From NCBI GenBank assembly GCA_964372905.1, contig CAYJQY010000001.1, positions 72,848 through 136,847 of the forward strand: a stretch of 64,000 nucleotides of DNA, given 5' to 3'. Every line of letters begins with the position of its first letter. The first letter of the stretch is position 1. This document shows, one piece after another, positions 36,678 to 52,089 of this stretch. Position numbers and translations under genes: made by a program. The DNA comes from an uncultured Candidatus Saccharibacteria bacterium (lineage in GTDB: Bacteria; Patescibacteriota; Doudnabacteria; UBA920). The notes beneath the pieces are model-generated. The model saw only the letters and a list, made by a program, of their open reading frames with translations. It was not told the origin of the DNA and did no database searches.

Positions 36678-36762
36678 CTACACTTTTAATTTTGCCTCCA
36701 CGCGCTTTAATAATACCGCATTATTCATCGCCGCAATAATGGAAGATGCAAACACGAGCAGA
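36678..36762 (-). pseudogene. remnant of a P1B-type ATPase (CopA-like) 3' end
   Basis: Minus-strand frame translates to ..SSIIAAMNNAVLLKRVEAKLKV*, paralleling the copA C-terminus SSIIVATNAVLLKRVEKYLKN*. A 25-bp exact repeat (ccacgcgctttaataataccgcatt) occurs at 36698-36722 and 37240-37264. Confidence 0.6.
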
Positions 36763-36764
36763 CA

Positions 36765-37190
36765 TTAACACTTGCATTCCCATAGGTTGTTAAACCACCT
36801 GATCACATACCGCCAGATGAAAAAGTACAGCACAGGCAGCCATAACCAGGCAATGTTGTGATAGAAATAATCAAATTTTTGTCCGTCCACAAAGATTCCA
36901 ACGACTGCTTGAGTTGCTTCCGCATGAATCCGGTGGCCAGCCGGATAAAGAATTGGCGACAAGCCAAAAATTAAGCCCAATGCCGCTCCCCAAAGGTCAA
37001 TACGAAATTTGGGAATCCGGTTTTGAATTACAAAATACATAACATTCCATAGTGCATATATAAAGGGAGCAAGTGTAAATTCCCACACAAGCAGACCGTA
37101 ATTTTTGGTTACTTGACCATAGAACACGAGCAAAGCCACGATTGCTCCTGGGAAAATAAATCCTGAAATAAAAGCTTTAAAATATTTCAT
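36765..37190 (-). CDS. hypothetical 4-TM membrane protein flanked by copA 3'-end repeats
   Basis: 141-aa hydrophobic ORF lying between the copA remnant and the intact copA. Confidence 0.5.
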   Translation of the reverse strand: MKYFKAFISGFIFPGAIVALLVFYGQVTKNYGLLVWEFTLAPFIYALWNVMYFVIQNRIPKFRIDLWGAALGLIFGLSPILYPAGHRIHAEATQAVVGIFVDGQKFDYFYHNIAWLWLPVLYFFIWRYVIRWFNNLWECKC

Positions 37191-37219: not shown

Positions 37220-39508
37220 CTAATTCTTTAAATATTTTTCCACGCGCTTTAATAATACCGCATTCGTGGCTACGATGATAGAAGAAGCGGACATGAGCAA
37301 TGCGGCAATTTCCGGGCGCAATGACCAGCCTAAGCTATTATAAAATACTCCGGCCGCCACCGGAATGGCCAGCACATTGTAAATAGCGGCCCAGAACAGG
37401 TTCTGCTTCATCTTCGTAACCGTAGCTTTGCTCAAACGGATAGCCGCGACAATATCGTAGGGATCTGATTTCATGAGAACTATATTGCCGGTCTCAATCG
37501 CCACATCAGTTCCCGCGCCAATGGCAATGCCAATGTCTGCCTGCGCCAAGGCTGGCGCATCGTTAATGCCGTCACCGACCATAGCTACGAATTTACCTTC
37601 ACCTTGCAGTTTCTTGACATGCGTTGCTTTGTCCCCGGGCAGAACTTCAGCAAATACTCGATCAATGCCTAAATCTTTTCCCACTGCCTCGGCCACTTTG
37701 ATATGGTCGCCGGTAATCATAGCAACCTCAAGACCTAAATTTTTAAGCGCGCTGATGGCTTTTTTAGAAGTCGGTTTTACGGTGTCGGCAACCGCAATCA
37801 CCCCCGCCAGTCTGTTGTCTACCGCGATTAAGCTAAGCGTCTTGCCTTGTGCCGCCAAGCTGTCAATCTGATTGCGCTCTCCGGCAGTATCAATTCCTTT
37901 ATCAGTCAACAGTTTTTCTTTCCCTGCCAGTACCTGCTTGCCTCCAATAACACCTTTGAGGCCGAAGCCGGCAATAGATTCAAAATTTGAAATTTGCTCT
38001 CCGTTTAGATTCCGGCTTTTCGCTTCGTCAACAATGGCTTTGGAGATGGGATGATTGGAAGCCGAACCAATGGCGGCTTGCAGCCGCAATACTTCATCGG
38101 GTTGAAACCCGTTAAAACCCAATACATCGGTGACTTTTGGCTTGCCTTCGGTCAGCGTTCCGGTTTTGTCCAAAACAATAGCGGTGAGGCGAGAAGTATT
38201 TTCAAGTGTAGCCGCGTCTTTTATTAAAATATTATGTTTCGCTCCGATTCCTGTGCCGACCGCCACGGCAGTCGGCGTGGCTAGGCCAAGCGCGTCAGGA
38301 CAAGCAATAACAACTGTAGCTACGGCAAATGTCAACGCGGTCAGCAAGCTCGCGCTCCCCAAAAAATACCAACCAAGGAACGCAGCCGTACCAGAGCCGA
38401 TTGCCACGACTACCAATCTGCCGGCCCAGAGGTCGGCAATCCTCTGACCGGGGGCTTTGGAGTTCTGCGCTGTTTCCACCATTTTGATGATTTGCGCTAA
38501 AACGGTTTCCGAACCCACTTGGGTGGCTTCAAATTTTACGATTCCGGTAATATTAACCGCTCCGCCGACAACTTTATCGCCGATCTTTTTGCTGACGGGG
38601 ATAGATTCTCCGGTAACCAGGGATTCATCAATTGCGCTTTCTCCTTCGGTGACCTTACCGTCTACCGGCACCTTGTCACCCGGACGCAATACGACAATAT
38701 CTCCCTTAATGATTTCTGCACTGGGGACAGTCATTTCCTTGCCGCTACGAATCACGGTTGCTTGGGGAGGGACCAAATCAAAGAGGGCTCGCAGAGCGTC
38801 GGATGTGCCTCTGCGGGATTTCATTTCCATCCAATGACCGAAAAGAACAAAGGTGACCAGCAATGCTGCCGCTTCAAAAAAGGTTTCCTTGCCGCCAATC
38901 AGGGTGAGCAAGACGCTAAAAACATAAGCGGCCAAGACGCCGGTGGCAATCAGCACGGCCATATTCAGCTTTCGGGCTTTCAGAGAGTAGTAAGTGCCGG
39001 TTAAAAAGATGGAACCGGTCCAAAATACAATAGGGGTAGTGAGAATAAGCAGCAGCCAATTAACCGGGATTGGAGTTGGAAGATTCAGCTTAAAGATATT
39101 GATCCCCACCGGGGAATACAAAAAAATGGGAATAGAAAGCAGAAAGGAAATCCAAAACCTGCGCCGCATATCCGCGGCCATTTGCTTAGCGATGGCCGGA
39201 TTGGTCATGGCGGCCTCGTGATCCGCATGGCTCATGGCTTGCATATCATGGCCGGCGTGAGAGTCGGCTTTTTTGGACTTGCCCGCCATAGCCCCGCCTG
39301 CCGGCCGGGCAGGTTTAGCGGAGACGGGAATTAAATCCATGCCGCAGCCCGGGCATTTGCCTGGTTCTTTTTTGATTACCTCGGGATGCATTGGGCAGGT
39401 ATAAACCTGCTTGTCGTCATTCATTTTATTATGATGATTATGATTCATATCCATATAATTTATTAACTTAATACCCGGAAAACTCTTCAGTTCGAATGTT
39501 GTCTTCAT
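37220..39508 (-). CDS. copA: copper-translocating P1B-type ATPase with N-terminal CPMHPE-type metal-binding domain and CPD (not CPC) membrane motif
   Basis: DKTGT, GDGINDAPAL, TM MSASS motif, N-terminal YTCPMHPEV...CPGCGM and a His/Met-rich stretch. The TM6 motif is IACPDALGLATP. AGGTG SD before M1, with a 41-nt overlap of the upstream gene. Confidence 0.9.
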   Translation of the reverse strand: MKTTFELKSFPGIKLINYMDMNHNHHNKMNDDKQVYTCPMHPEVIKKEPGKCPGCGMDLIPVSAKPARPAGGAMAGKSKKADSHAGHDMQAMSHADHEAAMTNPAIAKQMAADMRRRFWISFLLSIPIFLYSPVGINIFKLNLPTPIPVNWLLLILTTPIVFWTGSIFLTGTYYSLKARKLNMAVLIATGVLAAYVFSVLLTLIGGKETFFEAAALLVTFVLFGHWMEMKSRRGTSDALRALFDLVPPQATVIRSGKEMTVPSAEIIKGDIVVLRPGDKVPVDGKVTEGESAIDESLVTGESIPVSKKIGDKVVGGAVNITGIVKFEATQVGSETVLAQIIKMVETAQNSKAPGQRIADLWAGRLVVVAIGSGTAAFLGWYFLGSASLLTALTFAVATVVIACPDALGLATPTAVAVGTGIGAKHNILIKDAATLENTSRLTAIVLDKTGTLTEGKPKVTDVLGFNGFQPDEVLRLQAAIGSASNHPISKAIVDEAKSRNLNGEQISNFESIAGFGLKGVIGGKQVLAGKEKLLTDKGIDTAGERNQIDSLAAQGKTLSLIAVDNRLAGVIAVADTVKPTSKKAISALKNLGLEVAMITGDHIKVAEAVGKDLGIDRVFAEVLPGDKATHVKKLQGEGKFVAMVGDGINDAPALAQADIGIAIGAGTDVAIETGNIVLMKSDPYDIVAAIRLSKATVTKMKQNLFWAAIYNVLAIPVAAGVFYNSLGWSLRPEIAALLMSASSIIVATNAVLLKRVEKYLKN

Positions 39509-40244
39509 TTACACCTGCATTAGCAAGTAACTCTTTCATCGCGGCAACCATGCTTGGCGGTCCGGCAAGATAATAGATAGATGCTTGAAGATCGTCAACA
39601 TACCGCTCTATCATGGCGCGGTCTATATATCCTGTTTCTCCTTGCCATTCCGTCTTTGATTTTTCAGGTTCAGTCATGGTTGGAACAAAGGTGAACGCTG
39701 GGTTTTGCTGAGCCAACTCTTGAAGTTCAGCGAGGGATGCCGCGTCTTCCGGCCGGCGATTAGAGTAAAACAGATATATATGATGGGGCAGTTTTCTTTC
39801 GGTTGCATCTTTAATCATAGAAAGTACGGGAGTTATGCCAATGCCTCCAATAAGAAACACAGCAGGCTTTGACGCGTCGCTATGCAACATAAATGACCCG
39901 TGCGGGTTTTCAATTGAGACAGTATCTCCAATCTCCATGCGTCCCAGAACTCTCTTAAAGGCAGTATCTCTCATTCGTGTTGCAATAACAATATCCTGCT
40001 CTGTAGGCGAATTCACAAAGGAAAACATTCTGCTGTTGCCCTCGGCGTCTGTTTGTGGAGGATTAATCAGGATCATCTTTACATGCTGGCCGGCCTTAAA
40101 CGAAAGCTCTGCCGGCTTTTCGAAAAAGAAAGCCATCGTGCCCTCCGCTACTTCTTTCTTGTCCTTCAGCGCGATTTCAAACACCTTTGCGTGTTCATGG
40201 TGTGTATGTTCGTGATGATCGTGTCCGTCATGATCGTGATTCAT
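39468..40244 (-). CDS. FNR-like FAD/NAD(P)H oxidoreductase (ferric-reductase-type flavin domain) with His-rich N-terminus
   Basis: FAD motif RMFSFVNSP, NAD(P)-binding GGIGITPVLSMI, N-terminal MNHDHDGHDHHEHTHHEH. Confidence 0.7.
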   Translation of the reverse strand: MNHDHDGHDHHEHTHHEHAKVFEIALKDKKEVAEGTMAFFFEKPAELSFKAGQHVKMILINPPQTDAEGNSRMFSFVNSPTEQDIVIATRMRDTAFKRVLGRMEIGDTVSIENPHGSFMLHSDASKPAVFLIGGIGITPVLSMIKDATERKLPHHIYLFYSNRRPEDAASLAELQELAQQNPAFTFVPTMTEPEKSKTEWQGETGYIDRAMIERYVDDLQASIYYLAGPPSMVAAMKELLANAGVNEDNIRTEEFSGY

Positions 40245-40311: not shown

Positions 40312-40971
40312 TTAATGCATTATTTGAGAATTATTTTGAGGCTTCATTTCAAACTGATAAGCGCCCTCGGGTTCGCGGTAGCTAATAAGCAAACCGGAGG
40401 CAATCAACAAAAACAGCATCCACGCATAAGCCGCTAATTTCAGTCGGCCTTTTCCCAACACCTCCACCGCTCTAAACACTCCCGCCAGAATAAAGGAAGC
40501 GCCTAAATATCGATGAATGGTTACCGCTCTCACAACTGCTTCGGAAGTGCCATGCTGCTCGTGGGTTAAAAATAGCACACCAATTATTAAAAGAACTATG
40601 GGAAAAGCCGCTTTCGGCCAGAGCTTGTCAGTTTTCAAGCTATAAAGTTCAGCTGCCCCGGCAACTGTGGCCAGAATTGCCAAATAAAAATGTTGGCGCT
40701 GTTGCGCATCCGTGATGGTAGCCTTCCAAGCCAACCCCATTTCATTGAAGTGGTGGGAAAATGAAAAAATAGGTAAAAACAATCCGGCCATAAGCATCAG
40801 GCTTGGCCAGGCATACTTTAGCCAGTTCGCCCGATAAATTCCGGTTATTTGCACAAAAGCAATAATAACCACCATAGCAAAGAGCGCACCCTCAACCCAA
40901 TGACCCAGGTTGGATAAGTAAATCAACTCATCTAGCGTATGTAATTGTAAAATAATTGGTAAATTTTCCAT
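40312..40971 (-). CDS. 6-TM His-containing membrane protein (candidate heme-binding ferric-reductase/MsrQ-like partner)
   Basis: About 6 TM helices with conserved-looking His in the helices (HH, THEQH). Immediately upstream of the FNR-like flavoprotein on the same strand. Confidence 0.4.
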   Translation of the reverse strand: MENLPIILQLHTLDELIYLSNLGHWVEGALFAMVVIIAFVQITGIYRANWLKYAWPSLMLMAGLFLPIFSFSHHFNEMGLAWKATITDAQQRQHFYLAILATVAGAAELYSLKTDKLWPKAAFPIVLLIIGVLFLTHEQHGTSEAVVRAVTIHRYLGASFILAGVFRAVEVLGKGRLKLAAYAWMLFLLIASGLLISYREPEGAYQFEMKPQNNSQIMH

Positions 40972-41092: not shown

Positions 41093-41275
41093 TCAATTAA
41101 CGGCGTCATCGTCTTCTACAATTTCATCTTGTGGTACGTATTCTTCGGGGCGCATTATAAAATTATCTTTGCATGCGGTACAGCACAAATGGTAAGCCAC
41201 TCCACGAAACTTTATAATCGCGTGTTCCTGCTTCTTGCGGATTTTCTTTTTGCAAACCGGATCAATATAATGCAT
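41093..41275 (-). CDS. YHS-domain metal-binding protein
   Basis: DPVC...HAIIKFRGVAYHLCCTACKDNF, YHS/TRASH-like. 60 aa. Confidence 0.6.
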   Translation of the reverse strand: MHYIDPVCKKKIRKKQEHAIIKFRGVAYHLCCTACKDNFIMRPEEYVPQDEIVEDDDAVN

Positions 41276-41278
41276 ATA

Positions 41279-41911
41279 TTAATATTTTGAAATCTTTTCC
41301 ATGAGCATATCGTTATTCACGGCCATGTTGGCGTCGTCCAAGACTTCTCGCACCATACCTTGTTTATCAATAAGGATATAGGTGTGTCCCAGCGCCTGTC
41401 CGGGATGCATAGACGACCCCATAGATAAAAGTCCTAAACGATAGGAAGCTGTACCGGCTAAATCAGCGTGATGAGCAGAAGTGCCGCCACCCCCACCTTG
41501 ATCAAATAGGATTGTAGCTTTGGCTAAATCCGGCATTTTGGCTGTCGCTGTTTGCCAGTTTTCGGGCGCGTCAGTCACTACTGAAAGAGCAACAATATCC
41601 TCCTTGTTAAACCGTGGATCGGTTCCAAATGCCGCCATCTGGTTCCAACAAGCCGGATAGCACATTATCCCTTCATTAAAAAACAACACGACATTCTTAC
41701 CTTTAAGACTGGCGAGGTCATAGTCTTTTCCGTCTTTATCTTTCAGGGTAATATTCGGCAGCGGCTTGCCGACAAGGCTGCTGGTTGTAGTCGCGGCTTG
41801 CTGTTTTTGCTCACTGGTCTTGCTGGTATTGAATAAAGCTATGCCAACAATGACCGCGACGACAGCGGCAAGCCCCAAAATCACAAATGGTTTTACATTA
41901 TTTTTGCTCAT
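41279..41911 (-). CDS. membrane-anchored SCO1/SenC-like thioredoxin-fold protein (CxxxC)
   Basis: N-terminal TM helix, GKNVVLFF..MCYPAC (C-x3-C), downstream His/Met-rich segment. Overlaps ccdA. Confidence 0.55.
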   Translation of the reverse strand: MSKNNVKPFVILGLAAVVAVIVGIALFNTSKTSEQKQQAATTTSSLVGKPLPNITLKDKDGKDYDLASLKGKNVVLFFNEGIMCYPACWNQMAAFGTDPRFNKEDIVALSVVTDAPENWQTATAKMPDLAKATILFDQGGGGGTSAHHADLAGTASYRLGLLSMGSSMHPGQALGHTYILIDKQGMVREVLDDANMAVNNDMLMEKISKY

Positions 41912-42761
41912 GGTTTTTAAATTGTTTAATGATGTAAATTATTAACAGAATAAGGATGAGGAGGACGAGTCCGGCCCACACCAGTTCAGGAATTTTCTGG
42001 GTAAAACGGTGTACCGAATGGACGAGATTGGCCATCAGAATATTAGTTGAGAGCTGATAACTGGACTGCATGGCCAGTTTGTTGGCCAAGGCCAAATAAA
42101 TGATATACACGCCCATGCCAAGGAATACGAATCCGGCCACTGTTTCAGCTAAGTTAAACCGCCAGGTAAAACTGCCTAACTTCAAGGTGCGCGGTTTTCT
42201 CAATGACGCAAACTTTTGGGTAAAGTTAATCTTATCCAGAAAGAAAGCAATCAGGAACAAGGGCATGACCATGCCGAGCACATAGCTTAAGGTGTAGACG
42301 CCGCCCCATAAGACACTGCCGCTGGTAACCGAAAGTGCTAGTACCCCGGCTAACACCGGCGCGCAGCAAGTGGTGGCAATAGCGGAGAAGATCCCTAATA
42401 CATAGACTGAAATAAAACTATACTTTTTTACTGACGGGTTTACGAATGACGGCAATGACATTTGTTTGCCCATAACCAGCGCTATACCCAAGCCAGCCAG
42501 CATCAGTCCTCCTAAAGTAAAAATAAAATTGTGATACTTATTAAACACCTGCGCCAACGCCGAAGCTCCCAGACCAATGGGCAGAAAGATGGTCAAAATG
42601 CCCAAAAAGAACATAAAAGTCATCAACACGACCTTGTATCTCTCTTTGAATACTGATCCCAAGTAGGACGGCAACAAGACCGTAATGCAGCAGGGCGCAA
42701 AGAGCGCCGCGATACCGGCAATGAAGGCCGCAATAATAGAAGTGCTTGCAAGTAAGTCCAT
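41898..42761 (-). CDS. ccdA: cytochrome c biogenesis protein CcdA / DsbD-family thiol-disulfide transporter
   Basis: FIAGIAALFAPCCITVLLPSYL matches the CcdA first-Cys segment. About 6-8 TM helices. 287 aa. Confidence 0.7.
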   Translation of the reverse strand: MDLLASTSIIAAFIAGIAALFAPCCITVLLPSYLGSVFKERYKVVLMTFMFFLGILTIFLPIGLGASALAQVFNKYHNFIFTLGGLMLAGLGIALVMGKQMSLPSFVNPSVKKYSFISVYVLGIFSAIATTCCAPVLAGVLALSVTSGSVLWGGVYTLSYVLGMVMPLFLIAFFLDKINFTQKFASLRKPRTLKLGSFTWRFNLAETVAGFVFLGMGVYIIYLALANKLAMQSSYQLSTNILMANLVHSVHRFTQKIPELVWAGLVLLILILLIIYIIKQFKNHEQK

Positions 42762-42963: not shown

Positions 42964-43428
42964 TTATTCTAAATTCCATCTAAAAGATCGCTCCGGGACA
43001 CCGCCTACATCCTTTATTTTCAGTTCAACATATTTTGGAATCGGGTTAATGCTGTTAAAAATCAAAGCGCCTTCCCGATGGTGGCCTCCCGGTCCTGGCC
43101 CTTCCCACGATACTGGCTGATACACACTGCCCTTATCATCAACCAATACTGCGACCTTGGTGGGATCTTGGTCCAAGTCGCCTGAATGCGCAGTAAAAAC
43201 AACAGTGAACTTCCATAGCTTAGCATCTTTGCCGAATTCAGTCGGCGTTATTTTAATTGACACCGGCGGCGGCTCGTCGGTTTTGGTTTCCCACTGCTTG
43301 GCATTCTGTTCTTGGCTGGTCTGCGCCGCCTGCTCACGCCCTTTCCTGCCGTCCGGGTAAACTGCAAAATAGTAATAGAGCAGGAAAATAACAGCCAGTC
43401 CGATTGCAATAAATCGCCAGTATTTCAT
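42964..43428 (-). CDS. hypothetical membrane-anchored extracytoplasmic protein
   Basis: N-terminal TM helix followed by a soluble domain with GPGPGGHHREG. No family recognised. Confidence 0.45.
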   Translation of the reverse strand: MKYWRFIAIGLAVIFLLYYYFAVYPDGRKGREQAAQTSQEQNAKQWETKTDEPPPVSIKITPTEFGKDAKLWKFTVVFTAHSGDLDQDPTKVAVLVDDKGSVYQPVSWEGPGPGGHHREGALIFNSINPIPKYVELKIKDVGGVPERSFRWNLE

Positions 43429-43865
43429 CCGCCTTTAACTTTAATGATTTTGCTTGTCACATACGCAATGCCTAAGGCATTAAACAGCAGCCCAACCCAG
43501 AATAGTTCTACTTGATACTGCGCAACGAATGTGACAATCCCCACGGCTCCAAGCACCGGCAAAACATTTGCCAGATAGTGGGTACAGCAGGACACCATGG
43601 CGGCCGTAGAAGTGGCGCCGGTCACACCAACTACTTTGCCGGCGCCTTGCGCGCCTTTTATCAGTGTTCGCAGGTATGCGTAGAGTCCGATTTGAATCCC
43701 AAAGCCCAGAGCCAGGCTGAGAATGAAATACCAGAAGCTATTGAATTGATCTTTGGCAAAGGCCCAGCCGGAAACCAACGAAAGCACTGAAAAATACAGT
43801 CCCAATAGAACAAGTGCTGCAATGAACCCGTAAATTACAGATTTTTTAATCGCGATCGTTTCCAT
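43425..43865 (-). CDS. hypothetical 4-TM membrane protein with intramembrane CC-x-HY motif
   Basis: MVSCCTHYLANVLP inside a predicted helix. 146 aa. Confidence 0.45.
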   Translation of the reverse strand: METIAIKKSVIYGFIAALVLLGLYFSVLSLVSGWAFAKDQFNSFWYFILSLALGFGIQIGLYAYLRTLIKGAQGAGKVVGVTGATSTAAMVSCCTHYLANVLPVLGAVGIVTFVAQYQVELFWVGLLFNALGIAYVTSKIIKVKGG

Positions 43866-43870
43866 AGGCC

Positions 43871-44065
43871 TTATTGCTTTGGAATATAAGCTTTTGGGTC
43901 TTGGGTAAATTGCTCTTTACAATAATCAGAGCAGAACTTATATTGCACTCCTTCATGCTTATGGATAATTGAATCAGTCGGCCGCATACCGCAGACCGGA
44001 TCTTTTGACGGTGCTCCGCTGGCTACGCCTTTGTTTCTTTTGAACAATGAACTGAATACGCTCAT
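43871..44065 (-). CDS. YHS-domain metal-binding protein
   Basis: DPVCGMRPT...YKFCSDYCKEQF matches the YHS/TRASH consensus. 64 aa. Confidence 0.7.
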   Translation of the reverse strand: MSVFSSLFKRNKGVASGAPSKDPVCGMRPTDSIIHKHEGVQYKFCSDYCKEQFTQDPKAYIPKQ

Positions 44066-44668: not shown

Positions 44669-44941
44669 CTACTTATTTGATAAAGTATAGACCTTAATCA
44701 GTTCCTTGATGGCTTTTTCATCTTCGCCCTTGCTCTGCATTTGGTGCTTGACGTGAGTGCGGAGATGATTTTCCAGGAGGAACGCATCCAGGCTCTTGAG
44801 CGACCTTTGGATAGAGAGCGACTGTTCCAACAAGGTGGGACAGTATACCTCTTTTTCAATAGCCTTAATAAGACCGTCTAGCTGTCCCCGGATGATTTTA
44901 CCCCGATGGATAGCGCGTTTTTTGAGTTTTTGGTCTACCAT
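44669..44941 (-). CDS. csoR: CsoR/RcnR-family metal-sensing transcriptional repressor
   Basis: 90-aa all-helical protein with Cys (YCPTLLEQ) and downstream His residues in the spacing of the CsoR C-H-C/H ligands. Heads the metal gene cluster. Confidence 0.65.
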   Translation of the reverse strand: MVDQKLKKRAIHRGKIIRGQLDGLIKAIEKEVYCPTLLEQSLSIQRSLKSLDAFLLENHLRTHVKHQMQSKGEDEKAIKELIKVYTLSNK

Positions 44942-47170: not shown

Positions 47171-50100
47171 TTACTTCCAGATAAAGTCGATAATCTGCTT
47201 ACCGCGACGGCGCATCAGGGCGAAACCGCCGGTCAGGAGTCCGGCAAAGCCTATAGCCGCCATGCCGCTGCCGGCGCCGGTCTTTGGCGCGATAAAGCGC
47301 GGCTGGCCGGGAATCGGAGGAATGGTAATAGTCACAGTATTGCCGTAGGTGTTGGTCATCACAAAGGTCTGCTGGGCGGACAGGAAGAATTTGACCCGGG
47401 CGCGGAAGCTCTTGGAAATTGAACCGCCAGCCGGAATATCGACACTGGAGAAAGTAATCGTATTCCCGCTCAAGCTTCCGCCGCCCCTGTCAACCATGTC
47501 AGCGAAAGGCAGGACGCCGGATAGATCATCGGTAATGGTAAAATTATTGGCCCGGGCATTGCCTGTGTTAGTCACGGTCAAAGTGTAGGTGATGAAATCC
47601 TCGCGGGCAGCCAGAGTAGTGGTCGCGTCAACATTCTTGGTATCATTATGCGCGCGTTTGCTGAAAATTAAGTTAGGGTTGCCCGTAGTGGTGGTGGTGG
47701 TATCGTTGTCAACAAAGACGAAAGCATCATCTTCGATCCGGCTCACGCCGTCGCCGGTGGCGCGGGCAATGTTCTGGATCGTCCTGGAAGAAGTCGAATT
47801 GACCCTGGCTTCAAACCTGATTCGACGCGACTCGCCGCTTCTAAGATCACCAAGATCCAGATCAATCCTGTTGCCGCTGGAGTTGTCATCATCCAAATCA
47901 TCAGCGTCGATGCTGTCGGTATCCACGTCTAAGCTGCTGGGCACCGAATCGGTCACCCGGACGTTATCTACCGTCTCGCTTCCGGTATTTCTCACCCTGA
48001 TTTCAAACTGGACCTCGTCATCGTTATCGGCATTAACGCTATTGCGCAGCGAAGTGCTCTGGGTTATGTTGCGGACCTGTTTTTCGATAGACAGTTCGCC
48101 GAAGCCGTCACCTATAAAGCGGTTGATAAATACGGTCGCGGAATCGCTTAACGAACCGACGCCGCTGCCGAATACTGTTGCGGTGTTGATAATGACAGTC
48201 TGGCTCTGGCCCGAAGCACCAAAAGCGCGGGCTTGGAAAGTCAAGACGCGGCTCTGGCCCGAAGTCATAGTGCCGACACTGATGAAATTGTTAATGAAGC
48301 TGTCTGAAATTGTTTGGCCATCGAGGCGTCCCGATCCGCTTACTAGCGTAAGGTGGCTCGGCAGGTTTTCCGACAACTGCACATTATTAACGGTACCGTT
48401 GTTGGCCGTCACCACAACCCGATATTCCACGCGCTCGCCGTCCTCGGCTGTGGTCTGTTTGGCAAAGCTCGTGCCGCGGGTCTGGTTGCGAACGTGTTTG
48501 GTGATGTTCAGATTGCCAGCATTCTGGTTGATGCTAACTCCGCAAATATCGCTGGTGCCGCTGCTCGTTACGGTAACGTTGCGCTGACCAGAGGTAGAAT
48601 ACGAAGTATTGAAAGTCGAACCGGAACCGGATGAAGGGTTGCCGCTCGGAGCAGACCAGGAGAAAACGCCGTTGCCGCCCGAGGCGGAGAAGAACATGGT
48701 TTGATTAACATCGCCCGACTGGAAACTAGGCGTGCATTCTACCGCATTGACGATTTGATTAACTTGAACTCCACAGGTATCGCTGGTGCCGCTGCTTGAT
48801 ACGGTCACGGTTTTTGATCCGGAAGTGGAATAGGAAGTGCTGAATTGGGAGCTTGATCCCGAAGAAGGGTTGCCGCTCGGAGCAGACCAAGAGAAAACGC
48901 CGTTGCCGCCCGAGGCAAAAAAGTTAGCCGTTTGTCCCACATTCACGCTCTGGAAGCTTGGCGAGCAGTCTACTGGGTTAACAACAATTTGATTGACCTG
49001 CACCGCGCAGGTATCGTTGGTACCATTACTCGTAACAGTTACAATCTTCTGTCCCGAGGTCGAATACTTAGTCTGGAAACTAGAGCTGGATCCGCTGGAG
49101 GGGATGCCTCCGGGAGCAGACCAGGAGAAAACGCCGTTGCCGCCCGAGGCGGAAAAGAATACCGTTTCATTGATATCCGCGCTCTGGAAGCTTGGCGAGC
49201 AGTCTACCGGATTCGGCTGAGGAATCTGATTCTGTTGATTCTTAAAGACCACTGTAGCACACTGCGGGCCGCTGAAAACTTCCACCACGCCGCCTGCCGG
49301 GGTCACCAACAATTGCTGCCAGCCGGACGGAACTGATTCAGTTACCGCGTGCGTGCCCGCGGAAACATTATTGAAGCGGGCATGACCGCCCGAATCATTC
49401 ACTGCGGTTGCGCCGCCGTCCAAGCGGAAAATGAATTGCGCCACCGGGGTAATTGGCTGGCCTTGGGTATTAAAGGTTTCTTTGATTACGTCGATACAGC
49501 CCACCACTTGGGGCGGTTGGTTGACGTTCACAGCACAGGTATCGCTCAACCCGCCGCTGCTTACGGTCACGGTTTTTTGACCCGGGCTATTGTAAGAGGC
49601 TGAAAAGTTGGAGCCTGAACCAGACGAGGGGTTGCCGCCCGGAGCTGACCAGGAAAAGACACCATTACCGCCCGAGGCCGTAAACAAAGCCGGCACGTTC
49701 ATGTCAACAGTCTGATTATGGGGGGCGCAAATAACCTGCTGAATCGGCGGACTCTTCACGCGCATCTTGAATTTCACAAAACCGCTGAATTCAAAGCAGG
49801 CCCGCAGGTCCCCCAGAGAAAATTCCCCGTTGGAGTCTATGCTAAAACCGCTCTGCACCAGGTTGCCTCGGAAGTCAAAGCGCTGGCCGCTGCCAGGAAT
49901 GATTTCTAAACTCTCGTTGGCATTGGTATGGATAAAAATTGAGTCGCGGATCGTGGCGGCATTATCGGCGCGCAGAGCAATTTTAACCCGGTGCTCTGCG
50001 GCAGCGGCCGTATCAATATTCGTTCCAACTGCAACATTAAACGCTGTAGTAACATTGGGATCGCCATTTACAATAGCCCCGTTATGGAAATACACCAACA

Positions 50101-50416
50101 CGTCAACAACATCGCCGGCATGGGCCGTAACACCTGCCGCTTGCTCGGCATCGTTCCTGGGGTATTGGCCGTTTTCAAGCTTAGCCCGGACCAAAGGAAA
50201 ATCCACACAGGCCAAACCTGGATCGCCGTAAACAATGGGAAACGGATTGAATACCGGGGTTTGAAATTCCTGACAGTCTTCGGCCAAGGCGTTATCTGAA
50301 CGCTGCGGCGCAAAAGCAAAAATGGCGCCGACAGCCAATAAAATCAGCCCCACTTTCCAATTAAAGCGAGGAAAAATCGAACGGAATTTTGACCAAAATG
50401 CTCGCTGGGTGGACAT
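47171..50416 (-). CDS. giant repeat-containing cell-surface protein with C-terminal sortase-type sorting signal
   Basis: N-terminal signal/TM. About five ~75-aa repeats (..CSPSFQS..FFSASGGNGVFSWSAPGGNPSSGS..TVTVTSSGT.DTC.VQVNQ). About three DUF11-like 'conserved repeat' domains. C-terminus IAPKTG followed by a hydrophobic segment and RRRGK. Confidence 0.8.
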   Translation of the reverse strand: MSTQRAFWSKFRSIFPRFNWKVGLILLAVGAIFAFAPQRSDNALAEDCQEFQTPVFNPFPIVYGDPGLACVDFPLVRAKLENGQYPRNDAEQAAGVTAHAGDVVDVLVYFHNGAIVNGDPNVTTAFNVAVGTNIDTAAAAEHRVKIALRADNAATIRDSIFIHTNANESLEIIPGSGQRFDFRGNLVQSGFSIDSNGEFSLGDLRACFEFSGFVKFKMRVKSPPIQQVICAPHNQTVDMNVPALFTASGGNGVFSWSAPGGNPSSGSGSNFSASYNSPGQKTVTVSSGGLSDTCAVNVNQPPQVVGCIDVIKETFNTQGQPITPVAQFIFRLDGGATAVNDSGGHARFNNVSAGTHAVTESVPSGWQQLLVTPAGGVVEVFSGPQCATVVFKNQQNQIPQPNPVDCSPSFQSADINETVFFSASGGNGVFSWSAPGGIPSSGSSSSFQTKYSTSGQKIVTVTSNGTNDTCAVQVNQIVVNPVDCSPSFQSVNVGQTANFFASGGNGVFSWSAPSGNPSSGSSSQFSTSYSTSGSKTVTVSSSGTSDTCGVQVNQIVNAVECTPSFQSGDVNQTMFFSASGGNGVFSWSAPSGNPSSGSGSTFNTSYSTSGQRNVTVTSSGTSDICGVSINQNAGNLNITKHVRNQTRGTSFAKQTTAEDGERVEYRVVVTANNGTVNNVQLSENLPSHLTLVSGSGRLDGQTISDSFINNFISVGTMTSGQSRVLTFQARAFGASGQSQTVIINTATVFGSGVGSLSDSATVFINRFIGDGFGELSIEKQVRNITQSTSLRNSVNADNDDEVQFEIRVRNTGSETVDNVRVTDSVPSSLDVDTDSIDADDLDDDNSSGNRIDLDLGDLRSGESRRIRFEARVNSTSSRTIQNIARATGDGVSRIEDDAFVFVDNDTTTTTTGNPNLIFSKRAHNDTKNVDATTTLAAREDFITYTLTVTNTGNARANNFTITDDLSGVLPFADMVDRGGGSLSGNTITFSSVDIPAGGSISKSFRARVKFFLSAQQTFVMTNTYGNTVTITIPPIPGQPRFIAPKTGAGSGMAAIGFAGLLTGGFALMRRRGKQIIDFIWK

Positions 50417-51477: not shown

Positions 51478-52089
51478 TCATTCTAAATTTCTGATAACGC
51501 CCACGACCTTGCCCTGAATGGACCATTCTTCTTTGGGATAGATGTTGGGATAGTCAGGGTTTTCGGCTTTTAAGTAGGCGCGCGTCTTAACGTAAATTAA
51601 CCGCTTCACCGTGGCCTCGTCATGCAGCAGCGCCACAACAATATCTTTATTCTTGGCCTCGCGCGTCGGCCGCACAATGACCAGGTCCCCATCAAAAATC
51701 CCGGCCTGGATCATACTGTCGCCGCGCACTTTAAGCAGAAACACGTCGCGCCTGCCCCGCACCAGCGTCTGCGGCAAATTGATCCACTCTTCAATCTGCT
51801 CCTCGGCCCAGTGCGGACTGCCCGCCTGAATGGCCCCCAAGATCGGCACACGAATCAAACCTTTTTCCAAACTTTCGTTCAAACTGTTCAACACGGTGAT
51901 GCCTCGCGCCTTACCATTGGTCTCAATAAAACCCTGCGCTTCCAAGGCATCAAGCAACTTAGCGATGGCATTCTTGGACTTAACGCCAAGCTGCCGCGCC
52001 ATTTCCGACAACGAAGGCGGCAGATTATGCTCGCGCACCTGCTGGACAATAAATTTAAGCAGCTGTTTTTGTCGATCGGTTAAACTCAT
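51478..52089 (-). CDS. lexA: LexA repressor (SOS regulon, S24 peptidase)
   Basis: N-terminal winged HTH. Cleavage and catalytic region (VRGDSMIQAGIFDGDLVIV, K in the C-terminal domain). 203 aa. Confidence 0.9.
   Translation of the reverse strand: MSLTDRQKQLLKFIVQQVREHNLPPSLSEMARQLGVKSKNAIAKLLDALEAQGFIETNGKARGITVLNSLNESLEKGLIRVPILGAIQAGSPHWAEEQIEEWINLPQTLVRGRRDVFLLKVRGDSMIQAGIFDGDLVIVRPTREAKNKDIVVALLHDEATVKRLIYVKTRAYLKAENPDYPNIYPKEEWSIQGKVVGVIRNLE

Follow-up and report, generated by a model that had tools for sequence, protein, structure and literature searches.

Several explanations could account for a P1B-type metal pump whose membrane motif ends in Asp instead of Cys or His: an error in the sequence, an altered CopA, or a native form of the pump, perhaps one with a metal of its own. 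The question is raised by a heavy-metal ATPase gene in a stretch of 64,000 nucleotides (the window; contig CAYJQY010000001.1, positions 72,848 to 136,847 of the forward strand) from an uncultured Candidatus Saccharibacteria bacterium, in which the fourth core helix, M4 (TM6 in eight-helix numbering), carries the triplet Cys-Pro-Asp (CPD). To our knowledge, CPC and CPH are the sole copper-pump motifs given in the standard P1B classifications. We consider it likely that the gene product is a P1B-type ATPase within the CopB (P1B-3) lineage that functions in copper export, with Asp as its native and selected third CPx residue. The fold, the catalytic and transmembrane motifs, the conserved Asp, the placement among the lineages and the copper-related genes nearby are the observations that support this, while copper as the substrate, D405 as a ligand and the direction of transport are what we infer.

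The pump gene and the conservation of its CPD motif

The ATPase open reading frame (ORF; 37220..39508, minus strand) comprises 762 amino acids (aa) in its maximal form, from which all residue numbers are counted here, and reads IACPDALGLATP. The true start is probably M21 (ATG at 39448..39446, MNHNHH...), giving a product of about 742 aa, because homologue N-termini open directly with MNHNH or MDHNNH and the upstream gene stops at 39468; the 5′ part of the maximal ORF (39446..39508) overlaps that gene, and M21 lies about 20 nt past its stop. The minus-strand stretch 38314..38276, running from gtt gtt att to gcc acg, translates to VVIACPDALGLAT, and the same stretch read from one codon on, through the following ccg, to VIACPDALGLATP. 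The codons tgt-cct-gac for C403-P404-D405 are as the first-pass annotation had given them, but its span, 38295-38303, is shifted by one base from the actual 38302..38294.

Pfam recognized an E1-E2_ATPase domain (E = 5.6e-53), a HAD-type Hydrolase domain (E = 6e-36) and an N-terminal HMBD (PF19335), whereas no ferredoxin-fold HMA domain was found in the pump. The DKTGT, TGES and GDGINDAP motifs, the HAD-type P/N and A domains and an xPx triplet at the unwound M4 helix, all expected of a P1B-type ATPase, were present, and the hydropathy profile contained eight hydrophobic transmembrane segments, as expected for helices MA, MB and M1-M6. The copper-subfamily model TIGR01511 of NCBIfam scored 563.5 bits (cut-off 397). 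None of the P1B-2, P1B-4 and P1B-5 signatures was present in the pump, which differs from ZntA and other P1B-2 proteins in having neither the M5 Lys nor the M6 DxG and in a much higher copper-model score. The MSASS motif and the CPMHPE-type N-terminal domain, both pointed out by the first-pass annotation, were confirmed (residues 739-743, and the HMBD at residues 35-62 with E = 1.9e-12).

The best solved relatives of the pump were AfCopA (7r0g, E = 6e-165; also 3j09) and LpCopA (3rfu, E = 3.6e-158), with about 600 residues aligned, and residues 36-67 of LpCopA aligned to the pump HMBD as the same domain. M183, E228, D359 and C403/D405 of the pump correspond to M158, E205, D336 and C380/C382 of AfCopA, whose transport residues are discussed in PMC9433437, and D405 also aligns with C384 of LpCopA. 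In these alignments, the Asp takes the place of the second Cys of the CopA core site, with all other site residues present. In an AlphaFold2 model (pLDDT, the model's confidence score, 72.9), the M4 helix was broken at C403-P404 (helices 388-402 and 405-424), and a Foldseek search of the PDB with this model returned the copper pumps 7r0g, 4bbj, 3rfu, ATP7B and HMA4 as top matches.

The conservation of the Asp was then evaluated at several distances. All of the 120 closest database homologues (75-100% identity, nearly all from Patescibacteria metagenome-assembled genomes, MAGs) carry CPD, with one departing solely in a residue flanking the motif. A scan of species-representative genomes (about 186,000) with peptide patterns from the window protein matched at least 567 genomes, from which 80 loci were kept; together with three metagenome loci and the window they form a set of 84 loci. 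CPD was present in 84/84 of these, including 80/80 species-representative loci, as well as in the six plasmid homologues of cultured organisms that were checked (6/6; 47-51% identity). Across 88 CPD sites, the Asp codon was GAT in 52 and GAC in 36, and the Cys and Pro codons varied too. Because synonymous codons swap while the residue stays constant, this pattern indicates purifying selection on the Asp at the amino-acid level, and the sequence record thus supports CPD as real, native and selected. Further, CPD pumps of near-identical type (65-68% identity) occur at three loci (L035, L052 and L063) whose MAGs bear the labels Woesearchaeota, Acidimicrobiia and Bdellovibrionales, which suggests horizontal spread of the island or mis-binning.

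Placement of the CPD pumps in the CopB lineage

A search of 1.84 billion cluster representatives returned CPD proteins on top; the matches below them were by a large majority CPC, with few CPH proteins. Neighbour joining on 145 sequences (692 columns) placed 10 CPD proteins together with 5 CPH proteins, to the exclusion of 130 CPC proteins, in 200/200 bootstraps. A second neighbour-joining tree, with cultured-organism sequences added and 18 CPC proteins, separated CPD plus CPH from CPC at 100% and recovered CPH as monophyletic, also at 100%. The CPH clade joins among at least three CPD lineages, the order of which is weakly resolved (39-70% bootstrap); by their M6 motif these lineages comprise Patescibacteria with a Roseiflexaceae protein (MS[AL]SS), Deinococcota (MSxST), Actinomycetota (MSGSS) and Aquicultor (MSAST).

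Derived residues common to CPD and CPH proteins were consistent with this grouping, namely H225 and M229, which flank the entry-site E228, together with L365, A369, G373 and A714. In detail, the TM2 motif GHWxE occurred in all but one of 255 CPD and CPH proteins examined and in 0/135 CPC proteins, and L365/A369/G373 of TM3 were likewise absent from the 135 CPC sequences. Position 405 alone set CPD apart from both CPH and CPC when residue co-variation was compared. R731 and E733, initially considered as residues co-varying with the Asp, are enriched in CPD proteins, yet they are found in AfCopA too and were set aside. At about 25 positions, the CPD proteins keep a CopA-like residue where classical CPH proteins diverged. 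On these trees and alignments, the pump takes a basal or intermediate position within the CopB (P1B-3) lineage and is not a modified CopA; therefore the relevant change would be between His and Asp (CAC/GAC, one base) rather than between Cys and Asp.

Compared with the classical CopB proteins (Bacillaceae, Enterococcus hirae and Archaeoglobus fulgidus CopB; CPH, MSxST and a His-rich N-terminus), the pump falls in one clade at 100% bootstrap and has the same TM2 GHWxE, TM3 Leu/Ala/Gly and A714. Its N-terminal His content is confined to a short MNHNHH stretch and a His/Met-rich linker, alongside the HMBD; H94 of that linker is kept by CPD and CPH proteins alike. It differs in Asp for His at 405 and Ser for Thr at 743, so that neither CPH nor MSxST is found in it. 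Compared with CopA (P1B-1; AfCopA 7r0g and LpCopA 3rfu), it is about 43-48% identical over the whole core and has the YN and MxxSS motifs and the entry Met, Glu and Asp residues, and its HMBD also occurs in LpCopA; however, it carries Asp for the second Cys, has no ferredoxin-fold HMA domain, has CopB-type TM2 and TM3 residues and belongs to another clade than the CPC proteins do. A full-length CopB-lineage structure was not found in PDB sequence and fold searches; from this lineage, they returned solely the nucleotide-binding domain of AfCopB (3sky/3skx).

Cubillas et al. (2017; PMC5552934) described the combination of CPD, YN(x)4P and MSGSS as a CopB-related subtype in Rhizobiales, and proposed that the clade VIc rhizobial Cu-ATPases (Xanthobacter autotrophicus, Nitrobacter hamburgensis, Bradyrhizobium sp.) form a new subtype related to P1B-3; this was the sole mention of the CPD motif in P1B pumps in the literature searchable. 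The window pump resembles clade VIc in CPD for CPH, YN(x)4P, MSxSS, few N-terminal His and the grouping with CopB-type proteins, the rhizobial proteins being compared by their published description. It differs in the central MSxSS residue (Ala in MSASS, Gly in the rhizobial MSGSS), in its HMBD N-terminus and, probably, in belonging to a separate, Patescibacteria-centred CPD lineage. The Actinomycetota proteins that are motif-identical to the rhizobial subtype (ITCPDALGLATP / MSGSS) form a CPD lineage separate from the window pump, and the MSGSS-type proteins of Rhodococcus and Mycolicibacterium are longer (about 820 aa vs. about 742 aa). Thermus thermophilus TTC0354 ("CopB") was tried as a characterized CPD pump and rejected, as the literature describes an HMA-bearing, SmtB-regulated pump and gives no motif.

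These comparisons modify the suggestion that CPD could mark an uncharacterized subtype: the subtype is distinct and no functional characterization of it was found, but it had already been described in 2017 (PMC5552934), and CPD is routine in hundreds of species, cultured bacteria included, although not as a functionally characterized subclass. CPD is thus a widespread, previously noted signature of the CopB lineage, neither an oddity of the window gene nor a new kind of protein, and the CPD pumps represent the CopB-type form throughout Patescibacteria, found also on plasmids of cultured Actinomycetota and Deinococcota. RefSeq names the CPD proteins copper- or heavy-metal-translocating ATPases, and annotators should take CPD neither for an error nor for a broken CopA.

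Predicted metal, mechanism and competing explanations

The pump would follow the usual Post-Albers cycle, with phosphorylation of D447 and TGES-driven dephosphorylation. Metal would enter past M183, E228 and D359, with the lineage-specific H225 and M229 alongside, would bind to C403, D405, Y710, N711, M739 and S743 at the unwound M4 kink and M5/M6, and would then be released outside. D405 would present a carboxylate at the position of the CopA thiolate and of the imidazole in classical CopB, in a predicted transmembrane site of Cys/Asp/Met/Tyr/Asn composition. In P2-type pumps, the residue directly after the M4 Pro is a cation-binding Glu (PEGL), and for Zn(II) ZntA relies on an Asp in the membrane; because of these precedents, D405 as a harder ligand is chemically plausible. 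A natural carboxylate at the core site would offer a clean handle on Cu(I) vs. Cu(II) selectivity in the CopB lineage.

The gene context of the relatives points to copper as the pump metal. Among the 84 loci, a multicopper oxidase gene lies within 8 kb of the CPD pump in 18 and directly downstream on the same strand in 9; in one of these (L082), the pump stop and oxidase start codons overlap. A cupredoxin gene lies near the pump in locus L090. CPD pumps were also found on plasmids of cultured Rhodococcus, Mycolicibacterium gilvum, Cryobacterium arcticum, Deinococcus geothermalis, Deinococcus gobiensis and Meiothermus taiwanensis. The order on the Rhodococcus plasmid is multicopper oxidase, CopZ, CopA with CPC, CPD ATPase and DUF305, and the Meiothermus plasmid encodes a four-helix-bundle Cu-binding protein, a multicopper oxidase, CopZ and CsoR with its CPD pump.

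Several observations weigh against a copper exporter. The Cd/Zn subfamily model of NCBIfam is also passed by the pump (381.5 vs. a cut-off of 313.5), with a score below that of the copper model, and a carboxylate is an unusual Cu(I) ligand. Neither a multicopper oxidase nor CopZ was found in the window, a canonical CPC pump is also encoded nearby in at least 14/84 loci, and the repressors associated with CPD pumps mostly have no canonical Cu(I) C-H-C fingerprint. No biochemical or genetic characterization of a CPD-type pump was found in the literature searchable. The occurrence of both pumps in those 14 or more loci argues that CPD and CPC pumps are not redundant.

The same observations bear on a rather unlikely alternative, that the Asp switches selectivity to Cu(II) or a harder divalent cation (Zn, Co, Ni, Pb), with Cu(I) left to a canonical CopA beside it. 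This would fit an O-donor that substitutes for S or N in the core site, the Glu and Asp precedents of P2 pumps and ZntA, the loci with both CPD and CPC pumps, and a motif fixed per clade, as CPD in the 120/120 Patescibacteria-type proteins stands against CPH, with MSxST, in 119/119 Bacillaceae CopB; the latter came from a profile search seeded with five CPH proteins, which gave closely related Bacillaceae CopB alone and little added diversity. The repressors fit as well. The CsoR/RcnR-family repressor (PF02583) that opens the run of genes ending with the pump, and probably regulates it, has an x-C-H-H fingerprint (C34, H59, H63) vs. the C-H-C of Cu(I)-CsoR. C-H-H repressors were in CPD-only loci in 25/26 cases, while 5/7 C-H-C repressors were in loci with a CPC pump too (Fisher p = 5e-4, uncorrected for phylogeny). 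However, in one locus (L081) a C-H-H repressor adjoins a CPC/HMA pump, and with this exception and an association uncorrected for phylogeny, naming the pump metal from the repressor fingerprint was dropped to a lead and the association of C-H-H repressors with CPD pumps is put no higher than hypothetical.

YN and MxxSS are copper-pump signatures, and both are intact in the window pump. Against the switch in selectivity stand these signatures, the absence from the pump of any P1B-2, P1B-4 or P1B-5 signature, and the copper genes (multicopper oxidase, CopZ, cupredoxin) among the neighbours in related loci. In addition, an early assignment of CopB-type pumps with CPH to Cu(II) was afterwards revised in favour of Cu(I) (review PMC7558416, citing Purohit 2018). 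A further conjecture, that the CPD pump and the x-C-H-H repressor form a matched pair, each one thiolate short, for Cu(II) or a harder cation, parallel to the C-H-C/CPC system for Cu(I), with CPD ancestral in the CopB lineage and CPH derived, is quite unlikely.

It is clearly improbable that the protein is instead a low-turnover metallation pump that feeds extracytoplasmic cuproenzymes, for example an adjacent multicopper oxidase, rather than serving detoxification. The ATPase stop overlaps or abuts the oxidase start in 9 loci and many loci have a second, canonical pump, as such a role would predict; but in most loci, the window included, no oxidase is encoded within 8 kb, the operons that contain the gene resemble resistance islands and begin with metal-sensing repressors, and the plasmid copies sit with other resistance genes.

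The first-pass annotation had framed the protein as an otherwise P1B-1-like CopA, that is, a P1B-1 pump with a lineage-specific Cys-to-Asp substitution. MSASS does fit MxxSS, and the closest solved structures are CopA proteins, though no full-length CopB structure competes; nevertheless, this framing is contradicted by the CPD plus CPH clade (200/200 and 100% against CPC in the two trees) and by the CopB-specific TM2 and TM3 residues of the pump, which leave it very improbable. Finally, a sequencing or assembly error or a decaying pseudogene, which has solely the rarity of CPD in textbook classifications in its favour, is practically negligible, as the ORF is intact with every catalytic motif and the same Asp recurs in >200 independent sequences with synonymous codon turnover; because of this conservation, the resequencing proposed in the first pass is moot.

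The gene island around the pump

The likely CopB-lineage copper exporter closes a same-strand run of genes that extends from 44941 to about 35944 (features in Table 1). The run begins with the CsoR-family repressor, DUF5676, a His-rich 86-aa protein, a YHS protein, the 146-aa membrane protein and a 154-aa protein, continues with a 61-aa Cys-rich protein, DsbD_TM, redoxin, a second YHS protein and the Ytp1-like membrane protein, and ends with the FNR-like oxidoreductase, the ATPase, an orphan 141-aa membrane ORF, the 3′ remnant and a methyltransferase.

Table 1. Coordinates of the pump, its motifs and neighbouring features in the window (residues as in the maximal ORF)
Feature	Position	Strand	Basis or remark
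P1B-type heavy-metal ATPase	37220..39508	-	ORF, TIGR01511, AfCopA match
His-rich N-terminus MNHNHH, residues 21-26	39431..39448	-	homologue N-termini; kept among homologues
HMBD PF19335, YTCPMHPE...CPGCGM, residues 35-62	39323..39406	-	Pfam, E = 1.9e-12
His/Met-rich linker HAGHDMQAMSHADHEAAM, residues 84-101	39206..39259	-	alignment
TM2 GHWMEM, residues 224-229	38822..38839	-	E228 = AfCopA entry-site E205
A-domain TGES dephosphorylation motif, residues 299-302	38603..38614	-	motif
CPD motif C403-P404-D405 (tgt-cct-gac)	38302..38294	-	M4 unwound kink = TM6 in eight-helix numbering
DKTGT phosphorylation motif, D447	38156..38170	-	motif and alignment
GDGINDAP hinge motif, residues 645-652	37553..37576	-	motif
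M5 IYNVLAIP, YN(x)4P signature, Y710/N711	37361..37384	-	= AfCopA Y682/N683
M6 MSASS, residues 739-743	37280..37294	-	M739/S742/S743 = AfCopA M711/S714/S715
Remnant of a second ATPase 3′ end, 28 codons and stop, CLLVFASSIIAAMNNAVLLKRVEAKLKV	36678..36764	-	translation
Orphan 141-aa membrane ORF	36765..37190	-	ORF; directly before the remnant
FNR-like FAD/NAD oxidoreductase, strongly His-rich N-terminus MNHDHDGHDHHEHTHHEH	39468..40244	-	directly upstream of the pump
219-aa Ytp1-like multi-pass membrane protein	40312..40971	-	recurs just upstream of the CPD pump in L081 (9261..9920)
Two small YHS/TRASH-domain proteins	41093..41275 and 43871..44065	-	same run
DsbD_TM-redoxin pair	41279..42761		same run
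146-aa membrane protein with SCCTHY motif	43425..43865		same run
CsoR/RcnR-family repressor (PF02583), x-C-H-H fingerprint	44669..44941	-	first gene of the run ending with the ATPase

Several modules of the run recur in 16-28 of the 80 related loci; for the YHS proteins, the DsbD_TM-redoxin pair and the 146-aa SCCTHY protein the range was 11-25/80. The FNR-like oxidoreductase, which may be a metal reductase, was common to just 2/80. The island proteins that lacked an annotation were also compared with NCBIfam, with no useful result.

The copA-type 3′ remnant that the first-pass annotation had reported nearby was found again at the position in Table 1, where it is 70% identical to the ATPase C-terminus in protein and 78% in DNA. 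The 141-aa ORF beside it had no Pfam or NCBIfam match and no homologue in the 80 related loci, so no related locus offers synteny to account for the two. Because the remnant is a genuine second ATPase 3′ end beside an orphan ORF, it suggests a cassette insertion or recombination at the 3′ end of the pump gene.

Elsewhere in the window, 47171..50416 (minus strand) encodes a 1081-aa protein with an N-terminal hydrophobic segment, a C-terminal membrane anchor and four tandem repeats of about 90 aa with the motif ASGGNGVFSWSAPGGNPSSGS, which is probably a surface protein. A 203-aa ORF at 51478..52089 (minus strand) has the look of a LexA-type repressor, judged by eye from its translation.

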